DNA of 64,000 nt from an uncultured Burkholderiales bacterium (GCA_964391505.1 CAYMMG010000005.1:19676-83675), one strand, 5' to 3'. Positions 30,472 through 59,489 are shown, numbered from the stretch's first letter. Numbers and translations are program-made. The notes: a model not told the origin generated them from the letters alone.

Positions 30472-30480
30472 GTTCCAGAT

Positions 30481-30521: not shown

Positions 30522-30547
30522 TAAAAAATGCGATCGTCTAGTTGAAC

Positions 30548-30720: not shown

Positions 30721-30728
30721 GTGTGAGT

Positions 30729-30820
30729 CAACTGAACGAACTGCTGCTACTTCGTTGTTTTGGGGGAGGGTCGCACCTGCGCTTAGTCGCTACGCTCCTG
30801 GCGCAGGAACAACCCTAAAT
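30729..30820 (+). repeat. family A intergenic element, full unit
   Basis: CAACTGAACGAACTGCTGCTACTTCGTTGTTTTGGGGGAGGGTCGCACCTG...CAGGAACAACCCTAAAT. Confidence 0.9.
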
Positions 30821-30868
30821 GCGAAGAAATCTCTTCTCACCCTCGCACTTTGGTAACCTGTTATTTCC

Positions 30869-31576
30869 ATGATTCGCTTCGAAAACGTTACAAAACACTA
30901 CGGGCAAAATGTCGTTGCTCTTAGAGAAATCAATATCGAGATACAAAAAGGCGAGTTTTGTTTTCTTGTGGGACCTTCAGGTTCGGGTAAATCGTCCTTC
31001 TTGCGGCTCTTGTTGCGTGAAGAAGTTGCGAGCACAGGTCGAGTTCTTGTTGCGGGTCGAGATATTGGCCGACTTTCTCAGTGGAAAGTACCTCAGCTTC
31101 GACGAAATATTGGCTGTATTTTCCAGGACTTTAAACTGCTACCCAACCGTACGGTTTACGAAAATGTAGCTTTTGCTCAAGAAGTAATCGGTCGTCCCCG
31201 GGACGTCATCCGTGCTCAAGTTCCTCAAATTCTCGAACTTGTTGGACTCGCAGAAAAGCAGAACCGTTTTCCTAACGAACTCTCCGGTGGAGAGCAACAA
31301 CGTGTTTCTATTGCTCGTGCTTTTGTGAATCGTCCACTTATTCTTCTTGCTGATGAGCCAACAGGAAACCTCGACCCTGCAACAACAGTGGGTATTATGC
31401 GATTGCTCGATCGAATTAATAAGACAGGAACAACAGTTGTCATGGCTACGCATGACGTCCGTATCGTCAACGAAATGCGTCGACGAGTTATAGAACTCGA
31501 ACATGGAAACTTGGTACGTGACCAACAACGCGGTGTATATGGTTCTGCACAACAGGTAGAAGGGGAACAAGCATAA
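30869..31576 (+). CDS. ftsE: cell division ATP-binding protein FtsE
   Basis: 235 aa with GPSGSGKS Walker A, LSGGEQQR signature and [11 protein letters not shown] Walker B. Confidence 0.95.
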
Positions 31577-32463
31577 TGCTTTCTCGCTTTTTCTACTTTC
31601 TCCGTGAAACTTTTATTTCGCTCCGTCGAAATATCTCAATGACTATTGCTGCTATTTTGACAATTTTCGTTACCCTCTCTTTGGTGGGTGTTGCAATGCT
31701 TGTGTTCTTCTGGAACGCTCAAGGCACAGCAACTGTTGAAAAAGCCGTTCGTTTTGAAGTCTTCATGCTCCCCAATGCACAGCAAGAACAGATTGATGAT
31801 GTTAGAAAAGAATTAGAGCAAGATAAAAAAGACGAAAAAGTTTCCAAGATCACGTTTTATTCAAAAGAAGAAGCATTTGATTTCTTTAAAAAATCATTTA
31901 AAGATGAAAAAGATCTTATTAAGTCGATTACCAAAGATGATCTTCCCGTTAGTTTCTTGGTAGCCCCACAAAAGCCTGATAAAAAGTTTGTACAGGATCT
32001 GATTGATACCTATAGCTCAACCCCTGGCGTGGACAAAGTGACGTTTGCAAACTTTGAAGATGACATTCAACGTGCCCGAGTTATTAATCGGACTCTTGCG
32101 GTGTTTGCGGCTGTGCTTTTGATCGCCAGCTGTGTGCTTGTTTTTAACACGGTGCGGTTAGCGGTTTACGCTCGTCGACGAGAAATAGAAATCATGAAGC
32201 TGGTTGGCGCAAGCAACTGGTTTGTTCAAGTTCCTTTTATGGCAGAAGGCGCAGTGCAGGGACTCGTAGGTGGTGTTTTTGCATCTGTAAGCGTGTTCGT
32301 ATTTCAGAATGCTGTTCTCGATAAACAATTCTCGACTGGATTTAAGGGGTTTGCTGTTTCGGCGACTCAATTATGGGGCACTGCCATCATGGTTGTTCTT
32401 CTTGGGATTGCAATCGGATTCATATCTTCCTATGTGGGTCTCAAGAGATATCTCGATGTTTAA
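31576..32463 (+). CDS. ftsX: cell division permease FtsX
   Basis: 295 aa. It overlaps the ftsE stop and has 4 TM segments with a large periplasmic loop. [11 protein letters not shown] motif. Confidence 0.85.
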
Positions 32464-32488
32464 TAAGGCCTGACCTTATTTCTCATAT

Positions 32489-32551
32489 GTCATCGCGAGA
32501 GAGCCGACCGAAGGGAGTCCTGAGCTTGCGAAGGATCTCGAGGGATCTCCG
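32489..32551 (+). repeat. family B intergenic element (long form)
   Basis: GTCATCGCGAGAGAGCCGACCGAAGGGAGTCCTGAGCTTGCGAAGGATCTCGAGGGATCTCCG. It is the near-exact reverse complement of 42848-42918. Confidence 0.8.
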
Positions 32552-32585
32552 TTGTGGATGTACGAGGCTAATCACAAGCCCCGCA

Positions 32586-32750
32586 ACAACTGAGCGGACT
32601 GCTGCAACTACTTTTCTTTTTGGGGGAGGGTCCGACCTGTTCGCTGTAGATCCCGATACAACTGTACGAACTGCTGCGGATTCGTTGGTCTTGGGGGAGG
32701 GCCGCACCTTGTAAAACCGCTTTGCGGTTGTCCAAGGAACGACCCTAAAT
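32586..32750 (+). repeat. family A intergenic element, dimer (truncated unit 32586-32657 + full unit 32658-32750)
   Basis: Both units carry ACAACTG.ACG.ACTGCTGC and TTGGGGGAGGG. The second ends GGCCGCACCTTGTAAAACCGCTTTGCGGTTGTCCAAGGAACGACCCTAAAT. Confidence 0.9.
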
Positions 32751-32824
32751 TGAGATGGTTTTTCGCATTGTGCGCCTGTGTGCGTAATAGTCCTTTCTTC
32801 CGGCTCTTTACTTTTCGTCGTTTC

Positions 32825-34072
32825 ATGACGAAGAATAGTCTTCGGGGAAAGGGAACGATCGCGTTGGCAAGAACACCTGCAAAGATATTGGGACTCGCAT
32901 TGTGTCTTTCTTTAATGCTGCCCATATCACATGCATTTGCAGTAACGAATTATTTTTCGCGTCCAACGGCTGACCCACGCATCGACAAACTTAAAGGTGA
33001 TTTGGAATACGTTTCTAAACAGGAAGCAGCGGAAGTCCAGAAGTATATAGCGCTCAAGGCTGAGAGCCAGAAAGCGGAAGCAGATCTCGCTTCGATCAAT
33101 AAAAAAATTCGTGATGCTGAAGCGCGACAGAAGTCCGCTCAAGATCAAGCAGCAAGCGCGCGAGCGGAGTTTGCAGCTGCGCAAGAACGATATGATCTAG
33201 CGGTTAAGGACTCCGAGACTGCCCATGATCGACGCTCAAAAGCAATTGTTCGTCTCTATCAAGAATCTTCAGATCCTGATGCAATTCCATCTATGTTGAG
33301 TGCAGGTCCCGAAGAACGTCAAGACATCATTCGTAAAACGTCACTGATGGAAAATTTCAATGACAAACAAACTGCTGTCATCTCTGATGCGGATATAAAA
33401 GCAAGTGAAGCAATACAAGAGCGAATGGCACATGAAGATGCGCGCATACGTGCTGAGGCAGCAGAAAAAATTGCGGCTGACGAAGAAATTTCTCTAGGAC
33501 CTTTGCATGAACAATACGCTGCTGCACAAAAGAAGGCGAAGGCAAATGAAACAGCCGAAAAGGCAATCGTTGATTCGTTGAAATCGAAGAAGGCTGGTTA
33601 TAACAGGCAGATTGCTCAGATAACTGCTGAATCGAATGCGCTTGCGGCACAGATCCGCAAAAAACAAAATAGCAATGTAGTTGTGGCTCCAGGAAAAATG
33701 CGACGGCCAGTGGGTGCGGCAATCAATTCGCCTTATGGTTATCGAGTACACCCGATTTATGGTGATTCACGTCTCCACGCGGGTGTTGACTTTAATGCGA
33801 GTTATGGCACCGCCATCGCAGCTGCGAAAGCCGGCAAAGTTATTTATGCCAGCCAGATGAGCGGATACGGAAACGTCATTATCATTGATCACGGTGGAGG
33901 AATCTCTACTCTTTACGCACACCAAAGTTCATTTGCAGTAAGTCTTGGCGCAGTGGTGAGTCAAGGTAAAACGATAGGTTATGTGGGTGCCACCGGAAAT
34001 GTTACAGGGCCACATCTTCACTTTGAAGTACGCGTTAACGGAGCGCCTGTTAACCCAATGCCGTATTTCTAG
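32825..34072 (+). CDS. coiled-coil M23 family metallopeptidase (EnvC/PcsB-like, FtsEX-associated candidate)
   Basis: The C-terminus carries HAGVDF...GNVIIIDHGGGISTLYAH...GPHLHFEV M23 motifs. A long coiled-coil precedes it, with a signal-like N-terminus. ATG 32825 is preferred over TTG 32750, which lies inside a repeat. Confidence 0.8.
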   Translation: MTKNSLRGKGTIALARTPAKILGLALCLSLMLPISHAFAVTNYFSRPTADPRIDKLKGDLEYVSKQEAAEVQKYIALKAESQKAEADLASINKKIRDAEARQKSAQDQAASARAEFAAAQERYDLAVKDSETAHDRRSKAIVRLYQESSDPDAIPSMLSAGPEERQDIIRKTSLMENFNDKQTAVISDADIKASEAIQERMAHEDARIRAEAAEKIAADEEISLGPLHEQYAAAQKKAKANETAEKAIVDSLKSKKAGYNRQIAQITAESNALAAQIRKKQNSNVVVAPGKMRRPVGAAINSPYGYRVHPIYGDSRLHAGVDFNASYGTAIAAAKAGKVIYASQMSGYGNVIIIDHGGGISTLYAHQSSFAVSLGAVVSQGKTIGYVGATGNVTGPHLHFEVRVNGAPVNPMPYF

Positions 34073-39985: not shown

Positions 39986-40347
39986 TGGAGGTGGGGGGTT
40001 TCGAAACCCCCGTCCTTTAGACCCATTCGTAGGCCTTCTCCGAGCGCAGTTACCGGTAAGGTTTCGAAACATTTGCCGCCAGTAACTCTGACAAAGTTTC
40101 TAGTCAACTAAATATGTCCTCGTAAGTAGCTAACGCCTTACGGAGCAAGTACCGTGATTGAACCTGATGCGGCGACGGTACCTACCGCTTCAGGCACTAC
40201 TTAAAATTAATTAAGCAGCTAGTGCGTAGACTGAGCTTTCGCTCTCATCGTTTGCATTTATTGTTTTGCACAGACTCTTTAACGACAGTCTGCAACGTCG
40301 GCTCGCTTCTCCTACGGCCAAGTACAAAGTCGAAACCATGCACCCCC
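39986..40347 (-). ncRNA. ssrA: transfer-messenger RNA (tmRNA)
   Basis: The 5' end is GGGGGUGCAUGGUUUCGAC. The 3' end is GGACGGGGGUUUCGAAACCCCCCACCUCC-A. A 7-bp acceptor stem carries G3:U (Ala identity). An internal tag ORF is present. CCA is not encoded. A TACAAT -10-like box lies at 40357-40362 (minus strand). Confidence 0.9.
40210..40254 (-). other. tmRNA tag-peptide reading frame ANDESESSVYALAA + TAA
   Basis: Resume codon GCA at 40254-40252. 14 codons end in the canonical ALAA, followed by UAA. Confidence 0.8.
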
Positions 40348-40423: not shown

Positions 40424-41188
40424 ATGCCTACAGAGAGCGAAGAGACCGAGAAACAAAAACGCGATCTGTTGCATTACACCAAGCAAATGCAACATGAACT
40501 TGAAAAGAACTCCAAATGGGTTATTAAAAACCTTGATATGGTCAATCGGCAAGGTCGAATCGCCGCCGGGTCACTTCTCTTTCTCGCAGCCTTTGTTCAA
40601 CTTATACTTCCTAGTCATTTAGTTACAGGATCACGATTCTTTTTACCGCCTATTGAGATCGCCCTCGGTTTGATCTTTATTATCTGGCAAAAGCTTTTCG
40701 ATCAGCATCATCTATGGTTGCGTCATATAACCATCAGCTTTACTCTTGTGATCTCGTTCGGTAATGCAGTGTCCACTGGATTTCTTATCGACAAAATTAT
40801 TCAAGATTCGGAACTGACAGCTATCCATTTACTCATGGCCGGAGGAGTGGTGTGGTTTACAAACGTGGTGACCTTTGCGCTGCTCTACTGGGAATTCGAC
40901 CGCGGAGGTCCACTTGCTCGGATTGTAAATGGTTGGCAGCACGCAGATTTCTATTTTCCTCAAATGGATATTGATTATTCGGGTGAAGCAACCAAAGCAA
41001 TTGTGCGCCCCGGTTGGGAACCTCACTACTTCGACTATTTATATTTGGCGACCACCAACGCGACAGCATTTTCTCCCACCGACGTGATGCCGCTTACGTG
41101 GAAGGCGAAAGCTTTGATGGGTACTCAATCGGTTGTCTCGCTGGTGACGGTTACACTTGTCGCAGCACGTGCCGTGAACATTCTTTAA
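40424..41188 (+). CDS. DUF1345-like integral membrane protein
   Basis: 254 aa with about 5 TM segments and the LLYWEFDRGGP and ATTNATAFSPTDV motifs recalled for DUF1345. The exact start is uncertain. Confidence 0.55.
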   Translation: MPTESEETEKQKRDLLHYTKQMQHELEKNSKWVIKNLDMVNRQGRIAAGSLLFLAAFVQLILPSHLVTGSRFFLPPIEIALGLIFIIWQKLFDQHHLWLRHITISFTLVISFGNAVSTGFLIDKIIQDSELTAIHLLMAGGVVWFTNVVTFALLYWEFDRGGPLARIVNGWQHADFYFPQMDIDYSGEATKAIVRPGWEPHYFDYLYLATTNATAFSPTDVMPLTWKAKALMGTQSVVSLVTVTLVAARAVNIL

Positions 41189-41348: not shown

Positions 41349-41882
41349 TTGACGCAGAATACACCCAAGGTGCGGTCAACCCTCGTTCAACTTCCCGACT
41401 CCGTCCTTATCTGTCTCGACAAAATACACTTAGCTCAAGGCGGCCTTCGAAGCGATATAGTCCTCAGAGCTATTTTGACAACTGTTATTGAGTTGTCAAC
41501 CGTCGAAGAAGACGCTCGCGAATATTACGAGAGGCGATCACGTTACGGCGAGATTGTTGATCATGAATGGGATAACCCACACTCTGAACAACCGTGCAGA
41601 GCAAGACAGAAGGATATCCTTATTGAGGCAGGATTAGATACGGAATTACAACGGTTAACGCAAATTGAAATCAGTGTTCCCGTATCACTGCTCGATCGTG
41701 TGGATGCGCTTTGTTCTACCTTAGGGCTTTATCGCAATGAATTCTTTAGGTATTCGATAATTGACATGGTGGTAGATGAAGTACTGGAAATAATTAAAGG
41801 CGAAATCGAAATCGTTGTACCCGATGACGTATCAGTGCTACCCCAACCGCCAACTCAACCTCCACCGACACCCGAACTATAA
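41349..41882 (+). CDS. hypothetical protein with two ribbon-helix-helix-like modules and a Pro-rich tail
   Basis: 177 aa. Two similar segments (LVQLPDSVLICLDKIHLAQGGLRSDIVLRAIL and ISVPVSLLDRVDALCSTLGLYRNEFFRYSII) resemble CopG/RHH. The C-terminus is PQPPTQPPPTPEL. Confidence 0.45.
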   Translation: MTQNTPKVRSTLVQLPDSVLICLDKIHLAQGGLRSDIVLRAILTTVIELSTVEEDAREYYERRSRYGEIVDHEWDNPHSEQPCRARQKDILIEAGLDTELQRLTQIEISVPVSLLDRVDALCSTLGLYRNEFFRYSIIDMVVDEVLEIIKGEIEIVVPDDVSVLPQPPTQPPPTPEL

Positions 41883-42365
41883 CTATTTGTGTCGTTCTTT
41901 GAAGGCGCGTTGGATATCGCGATCCGCGTCGCGTTTCTTTAAGTCTTGACGCTTGTCGTAATTGCGTTTCCCTTTGCCGACGCCCAAAGTCAGTTTGGCC
42001 ATACCGCGCACAAAGTCGAGGCGCAAAGGAATCAAGGTAACACCACGTTCTTCCGTAGCCTTCGCCATTTCAGCGATTTCTTTTTTATGCGCTAACAATA
42101 TGCGGGGTCGATCAGGATCGATTTCCCCGCGTGAAAACTTGTACGGATTAATGTGCATGCCATAAATAGTTAATTCGCCGCCATCCGTACGAGCGAAAGC
42201 TTCATCAATGGAGACATGCTTTTCTCTCAGGGATTTCACCTCTGGACCCATCAGGCTGATTCCACATTGATAGGTTTCAAGAATCTCAAAGTCGCGACGA
42301 GCTTTGCGATTGGTCGCAATAGGACCATCGCCTCGGCGTTCAGCGGAATCGGGTTGAGATGACAT
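41883..42365 (-). CDS. smpB: SsrA-binding protein SmpB
   Basis: 160 aa with ATNRKARRDFEILETYQCGISL and LLAHKKEI motifs and a basic C-terminal tail. Confidence 0.95.
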   Translation of the reverse strand: MSSQPDSAERRGDGPIATNRKARRDFEILETYQCGISLMGPEVKSLREKHVSIDEAFARTDGGELTIYGMHINPYKFSRGEIDPDRPRILLAHKKEIAEMAKATEERGVTLIPLRLDFVRGMAKLTLGVGKGKRNYDKRQDLKKRDADRDIQRAFKERHK

Positions 42366-42399
42366 AGTTTCAAGAGTTTATCGTTTGCAGGGTGGTGTA

Positions 42400-42843
42400 A
42401 TGCGCGCTGATATAGTGACTTTTGTGATGTGGACTATACCGAGTGAACTTGAAAACCAAATGAGAGAGCATTGCGTAGACGGATTTCCTCTTGAAGCCTG
42501 TGGGCTCTTCTTAGGTCCACTTGACGGAGAGGGCAAGCCCACAGGCGAGATAACTCATCTTTGGCCGGCTCACAATAGTGAAAAGTCAGCACGCATTTAC
42601 AGTGTTGACTCCAAAGATATGTTTGAAGCGAGTCGTTTTGCGCAAGTTAACGACATTGATATTGTGGGCGTTTACCACTCACATACGCATTCGCCGGCGT
42701 ATCCTTCCCCTACAGATATTGAACAAGTGGTGGATTCGAATTGGTGTTATGCAATTGCATCACTCGCGACAGAAGATATTGAGGTTCACTTTTTTTCTAT
42801 TGAAAATGATGAAGTGACAGAGCTCGAATGTGAGCGGATCTGA
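42400..42843 (+). CDS. mec: JAMM/MPN+ metalloprotease (Mec-type CysO-cysteine hydrolase)
   Basis: EACG...HSHTHSPAYPSPTD JAMM motif. It lies next to cysO/cysM. An alternative TTG start exists at 42385. Confidence 0.8.
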   Translation: MRADIVTFVMWTIPSELENQMREHCVDGFPLEACGLFLGPLDGEGKPTGEITHLWPAHNSEKSARIYSVDSKDMFEASRFAQVNDIDIVGVYHSHTHSPAYPSPTDIEQVVDSNWCYAIASLATEDIEVHFFSIENDEVTELECERI

Positions 42844-42950: not shown

Positions 42951-43673
42951 TTATTGCGCAGGGTCGTCACGTGAAACCGAGATGGCCTCACCAATCACTA
43001 CTTCGCCAGGACCAAGATCTGTAATGGGATTGCTCGCAGCGACGATTTCATTCTCGGGTGTTGCTTCAACGGGCGGATACTGAATATCAGTAGATGAAGG
43101 AGGGCCCGAATCGGCGACCTCTTCGGTGACAATGGCGCGTTCCACTTGCGCGGCTTCGCCAATGTCAACCGAGACTTGTGCTGCAACAGGTGGGGCTGGG
43201 CTATCAGCCTCATCTACTGTTGCATGCGATTGAGTAGGAGTTGATGTTAAATCAGGTTGTGGAGGCTTTGTGAAAACAAGGGATCCTGCTAAAACAGCCC
43301 CTGCGGCAACCATCGAAATTGGAACGAGAACTCTGCCCTTTTTCAACATCTGAATCAAGCGGTGTGTTTGCAAATCATCGCAATGCATCAAACGAGCAAG
43401 TCGTGTCGCCACATCGGTTTCATCCATCTCGAATGCATCAGCAAGGACAAGAAGGTCCTCTTCGCGGAGAGGAATGACCCCTGTTGACATATTCCGCAGT
43501 TCGTAAACCATTGAAAGATAGCTTGATAACGCGATGGTAATGTCACCCTGTACGTCAATAGGGCGTACAGCATCACCTGATGTCATAATCCCAACCGAAG
43601 AGTCAATGCTGATGGGTACTCGTGGTCCCCAAACTGATTCCCCATCCTGGGTAGCTTTCGTCTCATTTTCCAT
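42951..43673 (-). CDS. hypothetical single-pass membrane protein
   Basis: 240 aa with one central TM (VLVPISMVAAGAVLAGSLVF) and an acidic Pro/Thr-rich C-terminal half. It lies on the opposite strand inside the mec-cysO-cysM cluster. Confidence 0.45.
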   Translation of the reverse strand: MENETKATQDGESVWGPRVPISIDSSVGIMTSGDAVRPIDVQGDITIALSSYLSMVYELRNMSTGVIPLREEDLLVLADAFEMDETDVATRLARLMHCDDLQTHRLIQMLKKGRVLVPISMVAAGAVLAGSLVFTKPPQPDLTSTPTQSHATVDEADSPAPPVAAQVSVDIGEAAQVERAIVTEEVADSGPPSSTDIQYPPVEATPENEIVAASNPITDLGPGEVVIGEAISVSRDDPAQ

Positions 43674-43788: not shown

Positions 43789-44070
43789 ATGTCTATTGAA
43801 GTTCGAATTCCTTCTGTTATGCGATCCAATACCGCTGGTCAGGCGACTGCTCAATGCGCAGGTGATACCGTAGGAACAGTGTTGGAAGACCTTATTGCTC
43901 AGTTTCCTGGGATTGGAGACGTGCTTTTTGGGGATACGAAAACTCTTCATAAATATGTCAATATCTACTTAGATGCTGATGATATTCGTTATGTTGGCGG
44001 ACTTGACGCAAAAATCGGTGAAGCAAAAGAGCTGACAATTCTCCCCGCAGTTGCTGGTGGCTCCGCGTAA
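43789..44070 (+). CDS. cysO: ThiS/MoaD-family sulfur carrier protein CysO (with 2-residue extension after Gly-Gly)
   Basis: 93 aa ending ILPAVAGGSA. It is collinear with the mycobacterial CysO sequence pattern (VNIY..D.D.R...GL......D..TILPAVAGG). Confidence 0.8.
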   Translation: MSIEVRIPSVMRSNTAGQATAQCAGDTVGTVLEDLIAQFPGIGDVLFGDTKTLHKYVNIYLDADDIRYVGGLDAKIGEAKELTILPAVAGGSA

Positions 44071-45005
44071 TGCGCGTTGAATCTGTTCTTGATCTCATTG
44101 GATCAACTCCCATGGTGGGAATCCATGAACTGAGCCCTAACCCGAATGTAAAAATTTATCTCAAACTTGAAGGACAAAACCCTGCGGGTTCGATGAAGGA
44201 TCGAATTGCGCTCGCATTAATTGTCGATGCAGAGAAGCGCGGTGTTCTCAAACCGGGCGGCACGGTTCTTGAATCCTCGAGCGGAAACACTGGAATCGGT
44301 TTGGCAATGGTATGTCGGTTGCGCGGATACCGTTTAGTTGTGGTTGTTGCGGATAACGTAACGAAAGAACGCATTGATTTGTTGAAATCATTTGGAGCGG
44401 AAATCATTTTTTCACCCGGCACACTGGGGAGCAACGGAGCAATAGTTCGCGCAAAAGAATTAAGCGCAAACAATCCCGATTGGGTATTGCTCTATCAATA
44501 TGGAAATGAAGCAAATTCACTCGCACATGAAGAAACAACGGGTCCGGAAATATTAGAGGATTGCCCGGAGATTGATTTTTTCGTTGCGGGTCTTGGAACA
44601 TCGGGGACGCTTATGGGTGTGTCTCGCTATTTTCGTAAAGCAAAGCCTGACGTAAAAATTATTGCAGTCGAACCTCCAACAGGAGAATCTGTGACGGGGT
44701 TGCGTTCGCTCGAAGACGGATTTATTCCAGAAATATTTGACGCAGATTTGATTGATCGCAAAATCATGATTCGCTCACAAGAATCTCTTGAAATGACCCG
44801 AGAGCTTTTAAATACGTGCGGGATCTTTGTCGGCGTGTCAACAGGAGCTGTTGTCGCAGGTGCGGTCAAACAAGCCCAGCAAATTGAATCGGGAACGATT
44901 GTTGTTGTTTCACCTGATTCGGGATGGAAGTATTTATCTGCGGGTGTGTGGACCGATAACCTCGATGATGTAGTAAGCACATCCGAAACTATTAACTTTT
45001 GGTAA
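44070..45005 (+). CDS. cysM: PLP-dependent cysteine synthase (CysM-type, CysO-thiocarboxylate dependent)
   Basis: 311 aa with NPAGSMKDR (PLP Lys) and SSGNTGIGLA motifs. Its start overlaps the cysO stop. Confidence 0.85.
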   Translation: MRVESVLDLIGSTPMVGIHELSPNPNVKIYLKLEGQNPAGSMKDRIALALIVDAEKRGVLKPGGTVLESSSGNTGIGLAMVCRLRGYRLVVVVADNVTKERIDLLKSFGAEIIFSPGTLGSNGAIVRAKELSANNPDWVLLYQYGNEANSLAHEETTGPEILEDCPEIDFFVAGLGTSGTLMGVSRYFRKAKPDVKIIAVEPPTGESVTGLRSLEDGFIPEIFDADLIDRKIMIRSQESLEMTRELLNTCGIFVGVSTGAVVAGAVKQAQQIESGTIVVVSPDSGWKYLSAGVWTDNLDDVVSTSETINFW

Positions 45006-45008: not shown

Positions 45009-45986
45009 ATGATTACTCAAGATATCCAACTCTGCGTTGATGCGTTAACCCGTGGAGAAGTTGTCGCGTTTCCTACGGAAACCGTGTTCGGCTTGGGAGC
45101 ACGTTCGGATTCACCTGAAGCAATACGAAAGATATATGACATCAAAGGTCGCCCCGCTGACCATCCGCTTATCGCTCATTGTTCGGATGTCGATGTGGCT
45201 CTAGCTCTTTCTCCTGATGTTCCGGATTATGCACGTGCTCTCGCAGCAGAATTTTGGCCAGGACCGATGACGTTAATTTTTCGTCGTGCAGGGAGTGACG
45301 CAATCTGCGATGAAGCGGTAGGAGGACATGATACCGTCGCTATTCGTGTCCCTTCTCATGAAATTGCACGTGAGCTGCTGGCCCCTTGTGGTTTCTTTGT
45401 GTCTGCGCCTTCCGCAAATAAATTCGGTCGCGTATCTCCTACGACAACAGAGCACGTGCGATCTGAATTTGGAGATGACATTCTTATTCTCGATGGCGAG
45501 CCCTCACAATGCGGTGTCGAATCGACGATCATCTCGTGTACTGGTTCACACCCACACGTTATCCGCGCTGGTGCAATCACTACACAAGACATATTACGTG
45601 TAACAGGCCACGACGTCTCATCTGATCTAGCTAACTCAAGCGATGACAATGTAGCTGCACCCGGGACATTAGAAAACCATTATGCTCCTCGCATTCCTGT
45701 TTACGTTGTAGCTGACGAGCAAGCGATTGAGTTCACGGAAGGACTGAGCCCAGAAAATTCTGCATTTTTGTCTTTTGGTCAGCCCTCTCAAACTTTCTTG
45801 TTGTCCTTGGTTGTGCATTCCTACGATGATTATGCTCGCCAGCTCTACGACTTCTTTCGTCAAGCTGAAGTGAATGGGTGCGAAGCTATTTTCGCTGTGG
45901 CCCCTGAGAACGAAGGAATCGGTGTGGCGATCAATGATCGCTTAAGCAAAGCGTCGCATTCTTTAACGGAATCAAGCAATGGCTGA
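45009..45986 (+). CDS. tsaC: L-threonylcarbamoyladenylate synthase (YrdC + Sua5 domains)
   Basis: 325 aa with VVAFPTETVFGLG, KGRPADHPL and SAPSANKFGRVSPT motifs plus a C-terminal Sua5 domain. Confidence 0.85.
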   Translation: MITQDIQLCVDALTRGEVVAFPTETVFGLGARSDSPEAIRKIYDIKGRPADHPLIAHCSDVDVALALSPDVPDYARALAAEFWPGPMTLIFRRAGSDAICDEAVGGHDTVAIRVPSHEIARELLAPCGFFVSAPSANKFGRVSPTTTEHVRSEFGDDILILDGEPSQCGVESTIISCTGSHPHVIRAGAITTQDILRVTGHDVSSDLANSSDDNVAAPGTLENHYAPRIPVYVVADEQAIEFTEGLSPENSAFLSFGQPSQTFLLSLVVHSYDDYARQLYDFFRQAEVNGCEAIFAVAPENEGIGVAINDRLSKASHSLTESSNG

Positions 45987-48669
45987 TGCATCGCAGCGCG
46001 AAGGAATCTTCGTTATCCATCAGCCGACATATGAAAAAAATGAACATTCGCTCACGCTGACGTGTACCTATGAATCCCAACAAACTGACGGCGACACGCA
46101 TGTCTTTACCGAAACATTTAAGTTCACATTTCCTGAGTCAATTCACTTAGATGAGATAGATTCAGATCAAATCAACGCCACCGCGCGTCATGTTGCTATA
46201 GCTGCAGCGCCGAGTTATTACAAAGCGACTGTTTTACCAGTAGTTGCCCTTGATTTTCCTATGAGCACAGAAACAAAAGAGTGGTTGCGAGCGCTTTTCG
46301 ATCAAGGCTTACGCGAATTCTGGTTCCGTAATGGATTTGATCTCACAAAGGAAATTGACTTTTCTGCTCCAAGTATTAATGACACAAGTGGAAAGAAGCC
46401 GAAATCATCGAGGAATGCGAAAGACAAAATAAAGTATCTGGTTCCTATTGGTGGAGGAAAAGATTCTGCAACGACTTTGCACATCTTGTCTCGCAGTGGT
46501 GCGGATGTTGTTGGGTTTTCGATTGGCGATTTTAATTCAATTAATGAAACTGCACGTGTGGCTGGTATTGAGGTGGTCCGTGTTGCTCGAATAATTGACC
46601 CGTTACTTTTTGATCTCAATGCGCAAGGTGCCCCCAACGGCCATGTACCTGTGACGGCGATAACGTCAACCCTTGCGTGTATTGCAGCTCTTGGAATTGG
46701 TGCCGACGCAGTTGTGATGAGCAACGAGCGTTCCGCTGATGAACCGACGCGTGTTGTGGGGGATATTGAAGTCAATCATCAGTGGTCAAAGTCTTGTGAA
46801 GCAGAAAACCTTCTTCGTTTGGCCTTGGATAGTTCAGGTTGCGATATTGAATATTTTTCTTTGTTGCGTTCATCATCTGAATATGAAATTTTCTCAATTT
46901 TTTCTCAGTGCGATGAATTCCATACAGTGTTCACGAGCTGCAATCGTACGTTTCGCATTGATGAGGCCCAGCGCGCATCGACATGGTGTGCCGATTGCGA
47001 TAAGTGTCGTTTCGTGTTCCTCGGTTTGAGTGCATTCCGAGGCGCTCTTTACGCATCCCAAATCTTTAGCGTGAATATGTTTGATGATGAATCCCAAAAA
47101 CAAGGCTTTCTTGATCTCCTCGGTATTGGTGATAACAAACCGTTCGAGTGCGTCGGTACTGTTCGAGAGTCACGAATGCTGGCACGCAACGCATTGAAGT
47201 GGGACGCGGCTGCAGGTTCGATTGTAGGCAAGACGCTTGCAGAGGCGTTGGGTGGCATGAATGTTCTAGATGAAAAAACTCCAGTTTCTTCTCATGAAGA
47301 TTTCATTCCAGAAGATCTGCGAAAAAATATCGAATCAATTCAAGTGGAGCAGTATAAGAAGCATTTGAAAGGTCATCTATCCGGTCAGAAAATTGGTGTA
47401 ATGGGACTCGGTCGTGATACTTCCGCCATCATTCGATTTCTTGACTCTTGTGGTTGCACTCAACCGATTCAGGTATTTCAACCTTCGAGCGAAGGATTAA
47501 CAGAAGAGGATTTTCGAGCGCAACGAGAAAAAGTGGGACTTGAAAATATTTCGATCGAGCTGATCCTAACTCGCGACATTGCAAACCTGAATGCAGATAT
47601 CGTTTTCGTGAGTCCGGGAATCTCTCGATATTCTTCGGAAGTACAGACATTAGGAGGGCGAGCAACGACTCCGCTTGCATGGTGGCTCTCGTATAACAAA
47701 GAGCATTTTCCTTCCAAGTGTTATATCGGAGTGACGGGAACCAAGGGCAAGAGTACAACTGCATCAATGTTGGGTCACGTGCTCGATCGCTCTGTTGTCG
47801 CGGGCAATCTTGGTCACGCCGTCGGAGAGGTCCGCGTTGAAGAATTATTAACAGCCGATTACATCGTGCTCGAAGTGTCAAGTTATCAAGCAAGCTATGT
47901 TACGACTTCACCGGATGTAGTTGCCGTTACATCTTTGTTTGACTGTCATATCGATTGGCATCGCACTCCAGAAAATTACCGTAAAGATAAGTTGAATCTT
48001 GCGCTGCAAGGACCTAACGAAATTGTTGTATCAGACACTATTGACGATTTTGCCCCCATGCTGATCGATATAAGAAAAGAACAAGCGCTTGTTGATCACG
48101 TCGATGTCATTACTTTTATTCCGAGTAGTGAAAGGTCTCTACTCGAACGTAACCATGATATGGTTCGCGCTATTGCTGAACTTGTTGCACCGCATATGTC
48201 CGAGTGGGAAATCACTGAGAAACTGGCAACATTTGCACCCCTGAAGCATCGACAAGAAGTTATCGCAACCAAGAATGGTGTGGTTTATATTTCTGATGTT
48301 CTCAGTACTGCTCCCTTAGCGGTGTTGATGGCAGTTGATGATTTTTCTCTGCGCTATCCCAATGCCACGGTCTATCTTTTGTGCGGGGGAGCAGATCGTG
48401 ATGTGCATCTGGATCCACTCATTGAAGGGTTAAATGTACGAAAAGATCGAGTCGTAACGATAACGCTTCCTGAAACGGGACACATGATGGAAGGCAAAAT
48501 TGAGAATGCCCACCACTGTGATGAACTGAGCAATGCTGTTCCCTATGTAGCCAGCGTGGCTAAGCCTGGCGATGTTGTCCTTCTCGCTCCTGGAGCACCG
48601 AGTTTCCATCGCTACGAGAATTACGCCAAACTCGCAGAGCACTTTGAACAGCTTGTTGGTGATCTCTAG
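45979..48669 (+). CDS. two-domain fusion: N-terminal PP-loop-like ATP-utilising domain (MurL-type epimerase candidate) + C-terminal MurD-family ligase
   Basis: 896 aa. The N-terminal half carries LVPIGGGKDSATT (SGGKDS-like PP-loop) and a CADCDKC Cys cluster. The C-terminal half has the MurD Rossmann KIGVMGLGRDTS, the GVTGTKGKSTTASM P-loop, and the remaining Mur-ligase middle and C-terminal domain pattern. Confidence 0.7.
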   Translation: MADASQREGIFVIHQPTYEKNEHSLTLTCTYESQQTDGDTHVFTETFKFTFPESIHLDEIDSDQINATARHVAIAAAPSYYKATVLPVVALDFPMSTETKEWLRALFDQGLREFWFRNGFDLTKEIDFSAPSINDTSGKKPKSSRNAKDKIKYLVPIGGGKDSATTLHILSRSGADVVGFSIGDFNSINETARVAGIEVVRVARIIDPLLFDLNAQGAPNGHVPVTAITSTLACIAALGIGADAVVMSNERSADEPTRVVGDIEVNHQWSKSCEAENLLRLALDSSGCDIEYFSLLRSSSEYEIFSIFSQCDEFHTVFTSCNRTFRIDEAQRASTWCADCDKCRFVFLGLSAFRGALYASQIFSVNMFDDESQKQGFLDLLGIGDNKPFECVGTVRESRMLARNALKWDAAAGSIVGKTLAEALGGMNVLDEKTPVSSHEDFIPEDLRKNIESIQVEQYKKHLKGHLSGQKIGVMGLGRDTSAIIRFLDSCGCTQPIQVFQPSSEGLTEEDFRAQREKVGLENISIELILTRDIANLNADIVFVSPGISRYSSEVQTLGGRATTPLAWWLSYNKEHFPSKCYIGVTGTKGKSTTASMLGHVLDRSVVAGNLGHAVGEVRVEELLTADYIVLEVSSYQASYVTTSPDVVAVTSLFDCHIDWHRTPENYRKDKLNLALQGPNEIVVSDTIDDFAPMLIDIRKEQALVDHVDVITFIPSSERSLLERNHDMVRAIAELVAPHMSEWEITEKLATFAPLKHRQEVIATKNGVVYISDVLSTAPLAVLMAVDDFSLRYPNATVYLLCGGADRDVHLDPLIEGLNVRKDRVVTITLPETGHMMEGKIENAHHCDELSNAVPYVASVAKPGDVVLLAPGAPSFHRYENYAKLAEHFEQLVGDL

Positions 48670-48675
48670 CTTCGA

Positions 48676-48754
48676 TACAACTGAACGAACTGTTGTAGTT
48701 TGGTTTGGTATGGGGAGGGCCGCACCTGCTGCTTCGCACCAGGAACAACCCTAA
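48676..48754 (+). repeat. family A intergenic element, full unit
   Basis: ACAACTGAACGAACTGTTG...TATGGGGAGGGCCGCACCTGCTGCTTCGCACCAGGAACAACCCTAA. It starts 6 nt after the stop of the PP-loop::MurD gene. Confidence 0.9.
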
Positions 48755-48804
48755 CTGCAAGTCTCTTTTCCAAGGTCAGACCTCCTTGCACCTAATATTG
48801 CATC

Positions 48805-49566
48805 ATGACTTTTACGCGCCACGATAACCGAACACCCGAACAACTTCGTACGATAAGTTTCGAACGTGACTATACAAAGTATGCACTGGGTTCAGTGCTG
48901 GTGAGCTTTGGTAATACCCGTGTCTTATGTACGGCATCGATGGAGCAAGACGTACCTCGTTGGATGAAAAATTCTGGCAGAGGCTGGGTGACCGCAGAAT
49001 ATTCGATGCTCCCTGGTTCTTCACCTCAACGAGTGACTCGTGAAGCCGCAAAAGGAAAGCAGTCGGGGCGCACCCAGGAAATTCAACGATTGATCGGACG
49101 CGCATTGCGAGGGGTGACAGACCTTACGTTGATGCCCGACATTTCAATCGTGCTGGACTGCGATGTTCTTCAAGCCGATGGCGGAACACGCACCGCATCC
49201 ATTTGCGGAAGTTATGTCGCACTTCACGATGCATTTACTCGTCTCGTTCAAGCGCAAGTGATTGGAACGAATCCGCTAACCGCTCAGTGTGCTGCGCTTT
49301 CGGTGGGAATTGTCGAGGCTGTTCCTGTAACTGATCTTGACTATCCAGAAGATTCCAATGCTGAAGTTGATATGAATGTTGTGATGGCGGGGGACCGGCT
49401 TATTGAAGTCCAAGGCACTGCAGAAGGTATGGCATTTACAAAAAATGAACTAGATCAACTTATTGAACTTGCGAGTAACGGTATTGCAGAGATTATGGCA
49501 TTACAAACAGAAGTTCTTTCCGTCCCTCCCTCACCACGAGAAATAAATCTTCGCTCCCAGGACTAA
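48805..49566 (+). CDS. rph: ribonuclease PH
   Basis: 253 aa with [33 protein letters not shown] and [16 protein letters not shown] motifs. Confidence 0.95.
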
Positions 49567-49570: not shown

Positions 49571-50173
49571 ATGTCTCGCTTTCTTCTTGCAACACATAAC
49601 CCGGACAAAGTTAAAGAAATCGAATCGATCTTTCGAGATGCATTGGGTGACGACATTGAATTTGTTGTCGGTATTGATCCTGGTGACGTAGAAGAAGATG
49701 GCGATACCATCGAAGAAAATTCCATGATTAAAGCGACTGCGTGGTTAGAAGTGAATCCTGATTGCGTGGTTCTCAGCGATGATACGGGTTTTTTTGTTGA
49801 AGCGCTCGATGGTGCACCTGGTATATATGCGGCACGTTATGCAGGGGAAAACGCCACGTATGCTGATAACTGCAACAAGGTGCTGCGAGAACTAGGCGAA
49901 TCGACCAATCGTCGTGCGCGTTTTTCTACGTGTGCAACCGCAGTGAGGTCAGATTCTCCTTCTATCGTTTCTACAGGAAGTGTTGAAGGGTTGATTGTTA
50001 AGGAAGATCGTGGCCTTGATGGTTTTGGGTATGATCCTATTTTTATTCCTTCGGATGATGAAGACGGGGAAACCTTTGCCGAAATGGGCATTAACGTCAA
50101 GAACATGATTTCTCATCGTGCTCGAGCATTCCGTGCTTTGGCCATGGGAATCAAGAATGCAGGATGGCAATAG
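49571..50173 (+). CDS. rdgB: dITP/XTP pyrophosphatase (RdgB/HAM1)
   Basis: 200 aa with ATHNPDKVKE, DDTGFFVEALDGAPGIYAARYAG and GYDPIF...SHRA motifs. Confidence 0.9.
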   Translation: MSRFLLATHNPDKVKEIESIFRDALGDDIEFVVGIDPGDVEEDGDTIEENSMIKATAWLEVNPDCVVLSDDTGFFVEALDGAPGIYAARYAGENATYADNCNKVLRELGESTNRRARFSTCATAVRSDSPSIVSTGSVEGLIVKEDRGLDGFGYDPIFIPSDDEDGETFAEMGINVKNMISHRARAFRALAMGIKNAGWQ

Positions 50174-56292: not shown

Positions 56293-57417
56293 ATGCCTGA
56301 TGCCTACCTCACTGCTTTTGGTGAATTTCTGCCCGGCGAACCAGTCTCCAATGAGAACATTGAAGATTACATCGGCATTATCGGTGAGAAAATTTCGAAG
56401 TACAAGAAGATGGTCCTCCGGCAGAACAAAATTCACACTCGCTATTATGCTTCTAACCAAGACGGTAGTTTCGAATATACCGTGGCCGAAATAGCTGCCA
56501 AAGCTATCCTGAATACGATAAAAAACTCAGAAGCCCAAATCGACGATATAGATTTTCTAGCAACAAGTTGTTCAATCCACGATGCAATGCTTCCGGGCTT
56601 GGCCTCCCTGGTTCACTCGAAGTTAGATATCGATGCGATTGATATCGCAAGCTATCAGAGCGTATGTGGAAGTTCAATCATGGCGCTGAGAGGTGCGGTG
56701 AATTCCGTTCGTGTTGGTGAAGTGCAGTTGGCAGCCGTTTCTGGTTCGGAAATTGCAAGCCGCCATTTTCGCCCGACCTTCTATGAAGGAACCGAATATT
56801 TCAAAGAAAATAAAGCGCTTCCGCTCGAACAAGAATTTCTCCGCTATACACTTTCAGATGGTGCTGGAGCAGTGCTTTGCGAATCGCGTCCAAATTCACA
56901 ATCGGTCTCGCTTAAAGTTGAATGGATTAGGGCGCAATCGTTTGCAAACCGTTTTCCTGCCTGCATGATTGGTGGTGCAGTAAAAGAAAACGGTCGCGTC
57001 ATCTCCTGGGGAAACCAAGATTCGCTAGAGTCGGCAATAGAAAAGGGGTGTTTCGTTCTCTCCCAAGACCTGAAGCTTGTCTACGAGATGATACCGGTAT
57101 GGGTCGGACATTACTTGTCGCTTGTTGAAGAAGGCGCGATCGTTCCAGATGAAATTGATCATGTAGTCAGTCATTATTCTTCCGAGAGCCTTAAAACAGA
57201 AGTCGTTAAGCTCCTGGAAAAATCTGGCTCTATGATCGATGAAGATAAATGGTTTAGCAATCTTTCGTATAAAGGAAATACAGGTTCGGCGTCCATTTTT
57301 ATATTGTTGCATGAGCTTTTTTACTCCGGAAAGCTGGTGGAAGGTCAAAAAGTTTTATGCCATGTTCCTGAAAGTGGACAAGCTTTTAATTCGTTCATGC
57401 TTCTGGAGGTCGTATGA
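56293..57417 (+). CDS. beta-ketoacyl-ACP synthase III-like condensing enzyme (FabH/KAS III family)
   Basis: 374 aa. Candidate Cys-His-Asn triad in the expected order (QSVCGSS, VVSHYSS, KGNTGSASI), with a thiolase-fold length. Confidence 0.7.
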   Translation: MPDAYLTAFGEFLPGEPVSNENIEDYIGIIGEKISKYKKMVLRQNKIHTRYYASNQDGSFEYTVAEIAAKAILNTIKNSEAQIDDIDFLATSCSIHDAMLPGLASLVHSKLDIDAIDIASYQSVCGSSIMALRGAVNSVRVGEVQLAAVSGSEIASRHFRPTFYEGTEYFKENKALPLEQEFLRYTLSDGAGAVLCESRPNSQSVSLKVEWIRAQSFANRFPACMIGGAVKENGRVISWGNQDSLESAIEKGCFVLSQDLKLVYEMIPVWVGHYLSLVEEGAIVPDEIDHVVSHYSSESLKTEVVKLLEKSGSMIDEDKWFSNLSYKGNTGSASIFILLHELFYSGKLVEGQKVLCHVPESGQAFNSFMLLEVV

Positions 57418-58085
57418 GTCAACCCAGCGAAATGGTTATGCGCAATCTCCTCATCGTTTGGACGGATTTTGAAAGCCGTTTGAACACAGTTCCTCTATTG
57501 AAAAAACTGTCGAATGGCCGCTTTACTCTAGAGGACTACAAACTTCTCTTGATCAACCACCGTCAACAAGTTGTTGAAGGATCCCGGTGGATATCTCGTG
57601 CAGCATCGAGCATCACCTCAGATTACTTAGAGCTGCGCTCGACTTTTCTCTCACACAGCATTACTGAACATCGTGACTATGAAATGCTGGAGTGGCAATA
57701 TGTTGAGATCGGTGGTTCGCTCGACGAAATACGGCAAGCTCCCAAAAATATTGGCACGGAAATCTTTCATTCGTACATGTTTCAGCAATCCAGTATGGAA
57801 AATCCGTTTCAACTACTTGGTTCGATGTTCATTATTGAAGGCTTGGGTCAGAGAAAAGCTAAATCGTGGGGCATTGAAATAAAGGAACAGCTCAAACTGA
57901 GTGATGCCGCTGTAGAGTTCTATGTGTACCACGGAGAGAATGACCCACAGCATATGGAAGAGTTCGATACGGCTTTGAATTCCGGGATTTTGGAAATTGA
58001 AGGTATGGGAGAGAAAATAGTTAAAACTGCAAAAATTACTGCATTGCTATACGAGTTGCAGTTGCGTGAAATAGGAAATTACTGA
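57414..58085 (+). CDS. heme-oxygenase-like fold, iron-containing redox enzyme family candidate
   Basis: 223 aa, all-helical, with Glu/His-containing segments VVEG, ITEHRDYE, IIEG and HGENDPQH. ATGA overlap with the KAS III-like gene. The assignment is by pattern only. Confidence 0.5.
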   Translation: MSQPSEMVMRNLLIVWTDFESRLNTVPLLKKLSNGRFTLEDYKLLLINHRQQVVEGSRWISRAASSITSDYLELRSTFLSHSITEHRDYEMLEWQYVEIGGSLDEIRQAPKNIGTEIFHSYMFQQSSMENPFQLLGSMFIIEGLGQRKAKSWGIEIKEQLKLSDAAVEFYVYHGENDPQHMEEFDTALNSGILEIEGMGEKIVKTAKITALLYELQLREIGNY

Positions 58086-58669
58086 TGGATAACGATACCG
58101 AAGTTCTCATTCTCAATTTTATTCTGTTCGTTATCCTTCCCTTGTGGGGGCTATCAGGTTTATTTGACTGGTGGTGCCACAAAAAATCCGACATTGAAAA
58201 GACTTCAGGATTGAAGGAATCATTAATTCATGCTTTGATGGGTGCCCAAATCGGGATCGCTTTTATTTTGGGAATCTTTTTCGAACTTACTGTTTTAACT
58301 TATTTAATTATGTTTATATGTTTAGTTATGCATGAAGTTGTAGCGCATTGGGACGTGAGATATTCTCAACCGAAACGCAATATTACAATTTGGGAAATGC
58401 ATGCGCACAACTACTTAGGCACGATCCCTTTGTATCTTTTCGCGCTCATCAGCGTTTTGGGATGGGAGGTTGTTACAAAAACTTTGTCCTTAGCGTGGAG
58501 TGATTCTTTTGCTTTCCGATTCCGTGACACGCCCATTGGTGGTGCTCGTTACTATGTCATTTATGGAATATTCATCTCTTTAGTGTGTGTTTTTCCATAT
58601 GTTTCCGAGGTGCTACGTTGTTGGCGTTACGAGAAGGAGGTTAAGGCAAATGGGAATATCGTTTCGTAA
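58085..58669 (+). CDS. His-rich integral membrane protein of unknown function
   Basis: 194 aa with about 5 TM segments and conserved-looking His clusters WWCHKK, LIHALMG, MHEVVAHWD and EMHAHNY. TGATG overlap with the upstream gene. Confidence 0.5.
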   Translation: MDNDTEVLILNFILFVILPLWGLSGLFDWWCHKKSDIEKTSGLKESLIHALMGAQIGIAFILGIFFELTVLTYLIMFICLVMHEVVAHWDVRYSQPKRNITIWEMHAHNYLGTIPLYLFALISVLGWEVVTKTLSLAWSDSFAFRFRDTPIGGARYYVIYGIFISLVCVFPYVSEVLRCWRYEKEVKANGNIVS

Positions 58670-59489
58670 ATTTGATACCCCGTTCATTACCGCAATTCGA
58701 AGAGACCGATCACTTCCTATTGCTGACGTCGCGGTTGATATGTGGATCAATGATCTAAAAGGCGGATTGCGTTGGGCTGTCATGCCGGTACTGCGTCTTA
58801 TTTTTGGGGCTACTCTTTATCTCACATGGTTTGTTAAGCGGTTGTCACCGATCCAATTTAATTCTCACAAAAACTTGCAGCGTCTCATATGTTGGTTCTG
58901 CACCTATTTCGTAACTCCTGAAGCGAACTATTTGATACTGAGACATTTCTGGACCGAATCAAATATCTTGAACTTTCTTATTGATAACGATGAGAAAGAT
59001 GCCAACATTAAACCTGTCCAACTTTATCCGGCAAAAATTCGTGAAATGATGGCCGCTACCTTTGTAGATCACGATCAAGAGTTGTTTCGATACTTTAATG
59101 ATTCGCCACCGCAACCTCAGGCGCTCATTAAAGAAGGTGACATTAACTGGGAGCATTGGAAAGAGATTCAACTTGATGGTGAAGTATTGAAACGAAAGTT
59201 CACTCAACGCATCGACTTTGAAACTGCTCATGTTCTATTTATGTGTATCTTTTGTTTTTTCTTAACTGCAGATGAATATCGCGGAGCAATCAATGGCTTC
59301 AATCTTGATCAGTCGATAGCCATACGTATCGGTGCGCTCATCGGAGATGACTCACTCGTTGAATACGCGTATAACAAGAATCCTCTATATTTGGTAGGAC
59401 CAACTGACCTTACTCGCAGGTTCATCCTTCACGGATTCTTTACTGAATATATGCATGAACGCTTATTGCAATATAAGAATGGTTCGTAG
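58650..59489 (+). CDS. hypothetical membrane-associated protein
   Basis: 279 aa starting from ATG 58650, preceded by a GAAGGAGG RBS. It overlaps the end of the upstream gene by 20 nt and has two hydrophobic segments. Confidence 0.5.
   Translation: MGISFRKFDTPFITAIRRDRSLPIADVAVDMWINDLKGGLRWAVMPVLRLIFGATLYLTWFVKRLSPIQFNSHKNLQRLICWFCTYFVTPEANYLILRHFWTESNILNFLIDNDEKDANIKPVQLYPAKIREMMAATFVDHDQELFRYFNDSPPQPQALIKEGDINWEHWKEIQLDGEVLKRKFTQRIDFETAHVLFMCIFCFFLTADEYRGAINGFNLDQSIAIRIGALIGDDSLVEYAYNKNPLYLVGPTDLTRRFILHGFFTEYMHERLLQYKNGS

Follow-up and report, generated by a model that had tools for sequence, protein, structure and literature searches.

A 64,000 nucleotide (nt) stretch of DNA from an uncultured Burkholderiales bacterium (GCA_964391505.1 CAYMMG010000005.1:19676-83675; the window) carries an 896-residue open reading frame (ORF) in which a homolog of the epimerase MurL is followed by a MurD-family ligase. 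The ORF begins with an ATG and ends in its own stop codon, and its first 8 nt overlap the 3' end of the Sua5/TsaC gene that precedes it (Table 1). From sequence comparison and structure prediction, the encoded protein is very probably a bifunctional enzyme of the alternative MurD2/MurL route to the D-glutamate (D-Glu) of peptidoglycan. An earlier note on this DNA had delimited the same ORF and quoted its motifs, with the PP-loop stretch LVPIGGGKDSATT located at residues 154-166, CADCDKC at residues 337-343, and the ligase stretches KIGVMGLGRDTS and GVTGTKGKSTTASM at residues 471-482 and 584-597 respectively; these, and the flanking cysM/tsaC genes on one side and rph on the other, were found as it described. 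The G+C content is ~46% and even over the region, and a scan of the region for promoter and terminator consensus sites gave counts equal to the shuffled expectation, with no signal.

Table 1. Genes of the fused murL-murD2 locus, and domains and sites of the encoded protein, in window coordinates
Feature	Coordinates	Strand	Basis or context
JAB/mec	42385-42843	+	conserved upstream block
Membrane-protein ORF	42951-43673	-	conserved upstream block
ThiS/CysO-like	43789-44070	+	conserved upstream block
cysM	44070-45005	+	conserved upstream block
Sua5/TsaC	45009-45986	+	conserved upstream block
Fused murL-murD2 gene	45979-48669	+	full-length homologs conserved
MurL N-terminal domain, residues 1-~135, beta-sheet and helices	45979-46383	+	Pfam MurL_N in relatives; model
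MurL catalytic core, residues ~150-440, predicted QueC-like PP-loop ATP-pyrophosphatase fold	46426-47298	+	NF041275, model, Foldseek, BLASTP
PP-loop motif GGGKDS, residues 158-163	46450-46467	+	homolog alignments
Four invariant Cys: C321, C337, C340, C343 (SCN ... CxxCxKC)	46939-47007	+	alignments
FECVG motif with near-invariant Cys391	47143-47157	+	alignments
Connecting helix, residues 445-467	47311-47379	+	full-length model
MurD-family ligase half, residues ~470-896: N-terminal Rossmann-like domain, Mur_ligase_M, Mur_ligase_C	47386-48666	+	domain search
Ligase P-loop GTKGKST, residues 587-593; K591 equivalent to E. coli MurD K115	47737-47757	+	alignment
Cys656-His657; His657 equivalent to catalytic H183, Cys656 at the D182 (E. 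coli MurD)/E197 (X. oryzae MurD2) position	47944-47949	+	alignment; PMC8788868
Leu775 at the K319 position	48301-48303	+	alignment
Arg807 at the K348 position (Arg358 of MurD2)	48397-48399	+	alignment; PMC8788868
Pro874-Ser875-Phe876 (Pro433/Phe435 of MurD2; A414-S415-L416 of E. coli MurD)	48598-48606	+	alignment; PMC8788868
rph	48805-49566	+	conserved downstream block
rdgB	49571-50173	+	conserved downstream block

The N-terminal half is a MurL homolog, as the earlier note had guessed, with the NCBIfam model of Xanthomonadales MurL (NF041275) matching residues 50-401 (E 7.8e-88, 295-297 bits, model positions 41-389 of 447), BLASTP giving 39% identity over 350 residues to MurL of S. maltophilia, and the Pfam domains MurL_N (PF26299) and MurL_epimerase_C (PF26298) precomputed on an identical database protein (P0001) and on its relatives. 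All of the family motifs are present, namely GGGKDS, NGHVP (residues 220-226), NHQWSK (residues 266-271), SCN (residues 320-322), and CxxCxKC. The exact GGGKDS sequence occurs in most of 85 homologs, with G160, D162, and S163 invariant in a 47-sequence alignment of the MurL domain, and the motif is predicted to form the loop binding the alpha-phosphate and pyrophosphate of ATP. Other columns invariant in this alignment and in a second of 32 fusions are H222, N266-H267-Q268, K271, S320-C321-N322, C337, C340, K342, and C343. Cys391, invariant in the 32 fusions and nearly so in the 47-sequence alignment, is a candidate acid/base residue for epimerisation.

An AlphaFold2 model of the MurL half, built from the alignment of 47 sequences (predicted local distance difference test score (pLDDT) 92.4, predicted template modelling score (pTM) 0.93), adopts a QueC-type PP-loop fold, in keeping with the "PP-loop-like" wording of the earlier note. 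Comparison of this model with the PDB using Foldseek ranks QatC (9y02/9y01, E 1.5e-5), Cap9 (9nto), and B. subtilis QueC (3bl5, target-normalised TM 0.69) highest, and MnmA, TtuA, and argininosuccinate synthetase (ArgG) next, all of which are PP-loop ATP pyrophosphatases that work via adenylated intermediates, with the QueC-family enzymes proceeding through adenylated acyl intermediates. A search of solved structures by sequence gave no match to the MurL half. The resemblance to QueC, QatC, and Cap9 takes in an SGGxDS-type PP-loop and a Cys-rich site, the four invariant cysteines of the MurL half being similarly arranged to the QueC zinc site and forming a predicted zinc site here. MurL is just 14-17% identical to these enzymes and differs from them in carrying a further domain at the N-terminus and additional helices at the C-terminus; its adenylation would serve to invert a stereocentre, whereas theirs makes a nitrile, amide, or glycosyl linkage. 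MurL uses one ATP and releases AMP, and the original authors, who described it as having no "known conserved domains", proposed adenylation of the alpha-carboxylate of Glu (PMC8788868; PMC5808125); a QueC-like PP-loop fold provides a structural rationale for this ATP-to-AMP stoichiometry. The full-length model of the fusion is compact (pLDDT 89.7, pTM 0.87), with a low-confidence loop at residues 136-147, following the MurL N-terminal domain, and with the connecting helix running continuously into the first strand of the ligase, leaving no disordered linker between the two halves.

Mur_ligase_M and Mur_ligase_C are both detected in the ligase half, which retains the catalytic set of E. coli MurD, with K115, N138, E157, H183, and the carbamylated K198 equivalent to K591, N610, E632, H657, and K671. 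Among solved structures, its best relatives are T. maritima MurD and S. agalactiae MurD, and its best model is TIGR01087 (murD), at 201.8-205.6 bits, just short of the 211.95 cut-off. All four MurL-linked ligases tested pass this cut-off with 259-298 bits (from Stenotrophomonas, L077:11202-12593; two Micromonosporaceae, L013:8558-9907 and L025:8606-9955; and an Acidimicrobiales metagenome-assembled genome (MAG), L086:4633-5931), so that NCBI and JGI mostly call such proteins D-Glu ligases, and the model does not discriminate between the two specificities.

The positions near the bound glutamate which differ between the two ligase types are D182, K348, A414, and L416 in E. coli MurD, and E197, R358, P433, and F435 in X. 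oryzae MurD2, with the E197D/R358K substitutions turning MurD2 to D-Glu, and K319T making E. coli MurD accept L-Glu (PMC8788868). In the order 182, 319, 348, 414, and 416 (E. coli numbering), the residues are Asp, Lys, Lys, Ala, and Leu in E. coli MurD; Asp, Lys, Lys, Ala, and Phe in T. maritima MurD; Thr, Lys, Arg, Ala, and Trp in S. agalactiae MurD; and Cys656, Leu775, Arg807, Pro874, and Phe876 in the window protein. Among 68 ligases adjoining unfused murL genes, including those of Stenotrophomonas (S. maltophilia), Dyella, Frateuria, Rhodanobacter, and Actinoplanes, position 182 is Glu in 58, Asp in 9, and Cys in 1; position 319 is Ile in 55 and Leu in 10, and never Lys; position 348 is Arg in 66; position 414 is Pro in 61; and position 416 is Tyr or Phe in 62. 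In all 117 of the nearest standalone homologs (identity of 36% or less), position 319 is Leu or Ile and position 348 is Arg; position 414 is mostly Pro, and position 182 is Glu (29) or Asp (88). Lys319 is thus absent from all 185 MurL-linked or nearest ligases, a MurD2 signature derived in this analysis rather than taken from the literature. Positions 319 and 414 appear to be robust discriminators, the window protein being MurD2-like at both, and it matches the MurL-linked ligases at four of the five sites (L775, R807, P874, and F876). The ligase half is therefore probably of the MurD2 type, with specificity for L-Glu; the MurD2 likeness proposed in the earlier note holds at positions 319, 348, 414, and 416 and for the nearest relatives, and fails at position 182, where Cys656 stands in place of Glu.

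The two nearest standalone relatives checked, from an Acidimicrobiales MAG and a Streptosporangiaceae contig, both lie directly downstream of murL. A neighbour-joining tree of the ligases, computed without outgroups, recovers the window clade in 300 of 300 bootstraps, nested among actinobacterial MurL-linked ligases, and joins it with canonical MurD in none; a previous tree with MurC/E/F outgroups was set aside, because distances in it had saturated and it placed MurE within the ingroup. The window clade forms a long branch in both the ligase and the MurL-domain trees.

Two other approaches were dropped. A hidden Markov model (HMM) of 66 MurL-adjacent ligases proved unsuitable as a membership test, scoring E. 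coli MurD (325 bits) above the window ligase (292 bits), and the "L-Glu" and "D-Glu" ligase labels of JGI were unsuitable as controls, being uncorrelated with the signature residues and split among close homologs.

Approximately 37 full-length or near-full-length fusions, at 25-85% identity, were collected from independent NCBI, JGI, ENA, and Logan assemblies, and the recurrence of the same two-module architecture across these sources indicates that it is not an artefact of assembly. The same gene order is seen where the two genes are separate: in a MurL-domain scan with one genome per species, which gave 80 loci among the matches listed (best match 39% identical), 67 of these 80 unfused loci have a murD-like gene after murL on the same strand, at a median gap of -7 nt. 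The order of the genes in these pairs is the order of the domains in the fusion, and their reading frames usually overlap, such that a small indel or the loss of a stop codon would be enough to fuse them. The MurL-domain tree suggests that this happened at least four times, with the fusions forming a single clade in 0 of 200 bootstraps and falling instead into at least four clades, each recovered in 200 of 200, plus singletons. Fused and unfused MurLs are interleaved in this tree, with the Microbacteriaceae fusions beside unfused Galbitalea, and another fusion beside Dyella and Frateuria.

An independent fusion in Ca. Staskawiczbacteria, of the Candidate Phyla Radiation (CPR), lies in the order MraY-hypothetical-fusion-FtsW-MurG (L093), which is the canonical murD slot of the dcw cluster; the presence of a fusion or gene pair in dcw murD positions implies that MurL-linked ligases serve as the MurD of the cell. 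The earlier note had taken a sole murD as a sign against its proposal. This was mis-specified, given that MurL-linked ligases are themselves annotated as MurD, XOO_1320 being described as a gene with that annotation (PMC8788868), and that a fusion fills the dcw murD slot. Neither dcw nor murI-block context was found at the loci of the Bacteroidales fusion and P0022.

The murL-murD2 pair is found well beyond the published genera, with more than 592 species-level genomes matched by the MurL-domain scan. In that scan it occurs in many Solirubrobacterales/Thermoleophilia, Mycolicibacterium arenosum, Mycobacterium sp. Root265, Nocardioides, Bifidobacteriaceae, Pontimonas, Holdemanella biformis, many Alphaproteobacteria MAGs, Saccharibacteria, and Peribacteria; over the survey as a whole, the pathway extends further to Acidimicrobiia, Bacteroidales, and Staskawiczbacteria, the last a CPR group like Saccharibacteria and Peribacteria. 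The searchable literature holds no mention of a MurL-MurD2 fusion or of the MurL fold, and the Pfam MurL domain models make the fusion architecture visible in databases.

Several of the unfused loci have features of their own. In a Micromonosporaceae MAG contig (L034:1-4555), murL-murD2 lies between ftsW and mraY on the opposite strand, as though it had been inserted in inverted orientation where dcw murD would be; in cultured Micromonosporaceae (L013, L025, and L050) murD2 and murL form a divergent pair with no dcw genes nearby. A gene of the PF02578 family (Cu-oxidase_4, the YfiH/PgeF peptidoglycan-editing family) adjoins murL-murD2 in the Acidimicrobiales MAG (L086:5928-6698) and in the Streptosporangiaceae contig (L087:7834-8685), and the protein P0084 is a fusion of PF02578 with MurL, which looks like a recurrent association of a precursor-editing enzyme with the MurL route. 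The unfused pair of this Acidimicrobiales MAG sits in a small island (L086:3354-12593) with genes for alanine racemase, D-Ala-D-Ala ligase, a Peptidase_M15 (VanX-like) protein, and a second Mur ligase of 503 residues.

At the locus itself, the genomes of the fusion clade (the window, L083, and L085) share the order SmpB-JAB-membrane protein-ThiS-CysM-Sua5-fusion-RNase PH-Ham1-small ORF-RpiA, with rdgB of the window likewise followed by a small ORF and then rpiA, and the fusion relatives with this gene order (GCA_964516875.1 and GCA_046331265.1) are at 57% and 51% identity. With RNase PH as the anchor, the fusion clade comprises the homologs of at least 77% identity, and those of the next group are at 71% or less; the three members of this next group that were examined all carry murI (Asp_Glu_race) and a Lactamase_B-fold gene between cysM/sua5 and rph. 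The orders are SmpB-JAB-ThiS-CysM-Asp_Glu_race-Lactamase_B-RNasePH-Ham1 in an Acidimicrobiales genome (L088, GCA_035512495.1), SmpB-JAB-ThiS-CysM-Pyr_redox-Asp_Glu_race-Lactamase_B-x-RNasePH-Ham1 in L089 (JGI 3300035691), and ThiS-CysM-Sua5-Asp_Glu_race-Lactamase_B-RNasePH-Ham1 in L090 (ENA ERZ25039539). The fusion thus sits in the murI and Lactamase_B slot of its nearest relatives, and has displaced murI in place in this Acidimicrobiia clade. Just 135 nt (48670-48804) separate the fusion from rph, compared with the murI and Lactamase_B-fold genes of the outgroups, indicating that the latter gene was lost along with murI. In L085, the equivalent gap holds a 68-residue ORF on the minus strand. 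Unfused murL-murD2 pairs occur in like neighbourhoods, followed by rph-rdgB in Galbitalea, and between cysM/JAB and rdgB in a Solirubrobacteraceae MAG.

The earlier note had argued for a murI slot by analogy with M. tuberculosis. The slot stands, with murI present there in three of the nearest non-fusion Acidimicrobiales lineages, although the M. tuberculosis order cysM-murI-rph was not found in the searchable literature. That order agrees with Rv1334-Rv1341, and the Acidimicrobiales loci supersede it as the comparison. Its statement that no murI is visible in the window was confirmed, with searches of the 64 kb by tblastn with E. coli proteins, and by Pfam on the other ORFs, finding no MurI homolog and no dcw gene; nor does the window contain a class-IV/D-amino-acid aminotransferase.

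Taken as the bifunctional enzyme proposed above, the fusion would act in two steps. The ligase half (residues ~470-896), as an ADP-forming Mur ligase, would add L-Glu to the wall precursor, and the MurL half (residues ~1-440), as a PP-loop ATP pyrophosphatase, would then adenylate the alpha-carboxylate of the terminal L-Glu, acidifying the C-alpha proton and allowing inversion to D-Glu. D-Glu would in this way be made on the nucleotide precursor, and not as a free amino acid. This adenylation and epimerisation chemistry is predicted by analogy with the published X. oryzae enzymes. The fusion itself would derive from an overlapping murL-murD2 operon pair which came to take the chromosomal slot of murI in the Acidimicrobiia clade. 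Channelling of the intermediate between the halves is plausible, and the fusion may be the sole D-Glu source of the cell. Tentatively, one may go further, to a possible state in which the fused polypeptide is both the only MurD and the only D-Glu source, murI having been displaced in situ and no free D-Glu pool remaining, and in which the clade-specific Cys656 represents a third mode of stereo-selection in MurD-type ligases.

Several observations weigh against this assignment. The MurD2-type Glu at position 182 is missing, and the Cys656 found in its place is kept in 17 of 17 close relatives; Arg348 and Phe416 are shared with certain canonical MurDs, those of S. agalactiae (Arg) and T. maritima (Phe); and the whole-sequence methods, HMM and tree, fail to part MurD2 from MurD, with the three canonical MurDs of the tree, none of them actinobacterial, grouped together in only 14 of 300 bootstraps. 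The MurL half, at 297 bits, misses the 700-bit equivalog cut-off of NF041275, and the negatives for murI, an aminotransferase, and a second murD cover only 64 kb of the genome. With regard to the cut-off, S. maltophilia MurL scores 825 bits, Micromonosporaceae MurLs 388-417, and an unfused Acidimicrobiales MurL 307, and as the model is specific to Xanthomonadales, the lower score of the window protein reflects phylogenetic distance rather than membership of another family. Micromonosporaceae is the family of the Micromonospora and Salinispora enzymes that were verified in vitro (PMC8788868). Similarly, Glu at position 182 is not universal amongst the MurL-linked or nearest ligases, with Asp in 9 of 68 and 88 of 117.

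Four rival explanations were weighed. The ligase half could be a canonical D-Glu-adding MurD, with the MurL half proof-reading or repairing precursor mis-ligated with L-Glu, or performing some other adenylation; the residue at position 182, the failure of the HMM and tree to separate the two types, and the rank of TIGR01087 as the best ligase model would all fit. We nevertheless regard this as quite improbable, since the Lys319 and Ala414 of canonical MurDs have given way to Leu and Pro, a change shared with the MurL-linked ligases examined, the nearest relatives are themselves MurL-linked, the murI slot is lost, leaving no evident source of free D-Glu, and MurL needs an L-Glu-adding ligase to supply its substrate. 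Cys656 could instead mark a changed amino acid specificity, leading to a non-standard stem peptide, whose second position might bear a modified glutamate or some other residue, or to a product outside peptidoglycan. Its fixation in the close relatives, its rarity (1 of 68) amongst MurL-adjacent ligases, and the long branch of the clade in both trees agree with this, but every other substrate and catalytic position is of the MurD2 type, position 182 varies naturally between Asp and Glu in MurL-linked ligases, and both the housekeeping synteny and the replacement of murI point to an ordinary supply of D-Glu, making such a change very unlikely.

Redundancy of the route is a less remote concern, albeit still an unlikely one: with the view of the genome confined to 64 kb, and without the dcw cluster of this clade, a murI or D-amino-acid aminotransferase and a canonical dcw murD could lie elsewhere, making the fusion a back-up or condition-specific second route. 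In each of the three fusion-clade genomes seen, however, the fusion occupies the murI slot, which in the outgroups still contains murI, a pattern that looks more like displacement than addition, and a fusion fills the dcw murD slot in the Staskawiczbacteria genome. Organisms with the published MurD2/MurL route also lack D-Glu-forming genes (PMC8788868). Finally, because unfused murL and murD2 usually overlap, a one-base error could join them in silico, making the fusion an artefact of a frameshift or mis-assembly; the chance of such an artefact is negligible given the uninterrupted architecture of the ~37 proteins, the conservation of the junction and the confident, unbroken helix predicted for it, and the identical protein in a second source.

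As a bifunctional MurL-MurD2 enzyme, the fusion can be set beside known systems. It shares with published MurL the homologous core and the PP-loop, NGHVP, NHQWSK, and four-Cys motifs, as well as a MurD-like ligase partner, the link to which is covalent here, and differs in that fusion, in its position in a long-branch Acidimicrobiia clade, and in its NF041275 score. With published MurD2 it has in common the Mur-ligase catalytic set, Arg348, Pro414, Phe416, a hydrophobic residue at position 319, where Lys is lost, and its placement after MurL; unlike published MurD2, it is fused rather than separate, is 27% identical to SmltD, and has Cys656 in place of Glu197, a residue shown by mutagenesis to affect stereospecificity (PMC8788868). 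The fusion occupies the murI position of related Acidimicrobiales, and so corresponds in location to part of the canonical route of MurI and a MurD that adds D-Glu (structures from E. coli, T. maritima, and S. agalactiae). In contrast to that route, its own would dispense with the racemase, invert the residue after ligation, on the nucleotide-peptide, and cost a second ATP (to AMP), with the Lys319 and Ala414 of MurD replaced. The bifunctional MurE/MurF proteins (NCBIfam NF008896) likewise carry consecutive cytoplasmic steps of stem-peptide synthesis on one polypeptide, but join two Mur ligases, whereas here a ligase is joined to an unrelated PP-loop epimerase.

Elsewhere in the window, a tmRNA gene (tag peptide ANDESESSVYALAA) lies near smpB (39986-40347 and 41883-42365, both on the minus strand), and secA, prfB, ftsE, ftsX, and an M23 peptidase gene lie upstream (26599-34072), which together with tmRNA/smpB form a typical actinobacterial arrangement. 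Co-directional genes run through 56293-59489 (plus strand), a possible small biosynthetic operon whose products include a Haem_oxygenase_2-like iron enzyme and carry ACP_syn_III_C-like and DUF6999 domains. Four ORFs, at 17238-19991 (plus), 16437-17153 (minus), 40424-41188 (plus), and 41349-41882 (plus), one of which encodes 917 residues, have no Pfam match at E of 1e-4 or better.

The MurD2/MurL pathway is known, having been described in 2017, and the fusion and the in-place exchange of murI are new architectural and evolutionary details of it. The route is a validated and little-studied alternative to a step targeted by antibiotics, and a single-chain MurL-MurD2 would be a handy reagent for structural and mechanistic work, with the QueC-like fold and four-Cys site giving a concrete basis to the proposed adenylation mechanism. 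The naming of MurL-linked ligases as D-Glu ligases by TIGR01087 is apparently a systematic mis-annotation, from which metabolic reconstructions would infer a missing D-Glu source or the wrong substrate. For the Acidimicrobiia clade itself, the exchange of murI for the fusion shows non-orthologous displacement cleanly, within a locus that is otherwise conserved.

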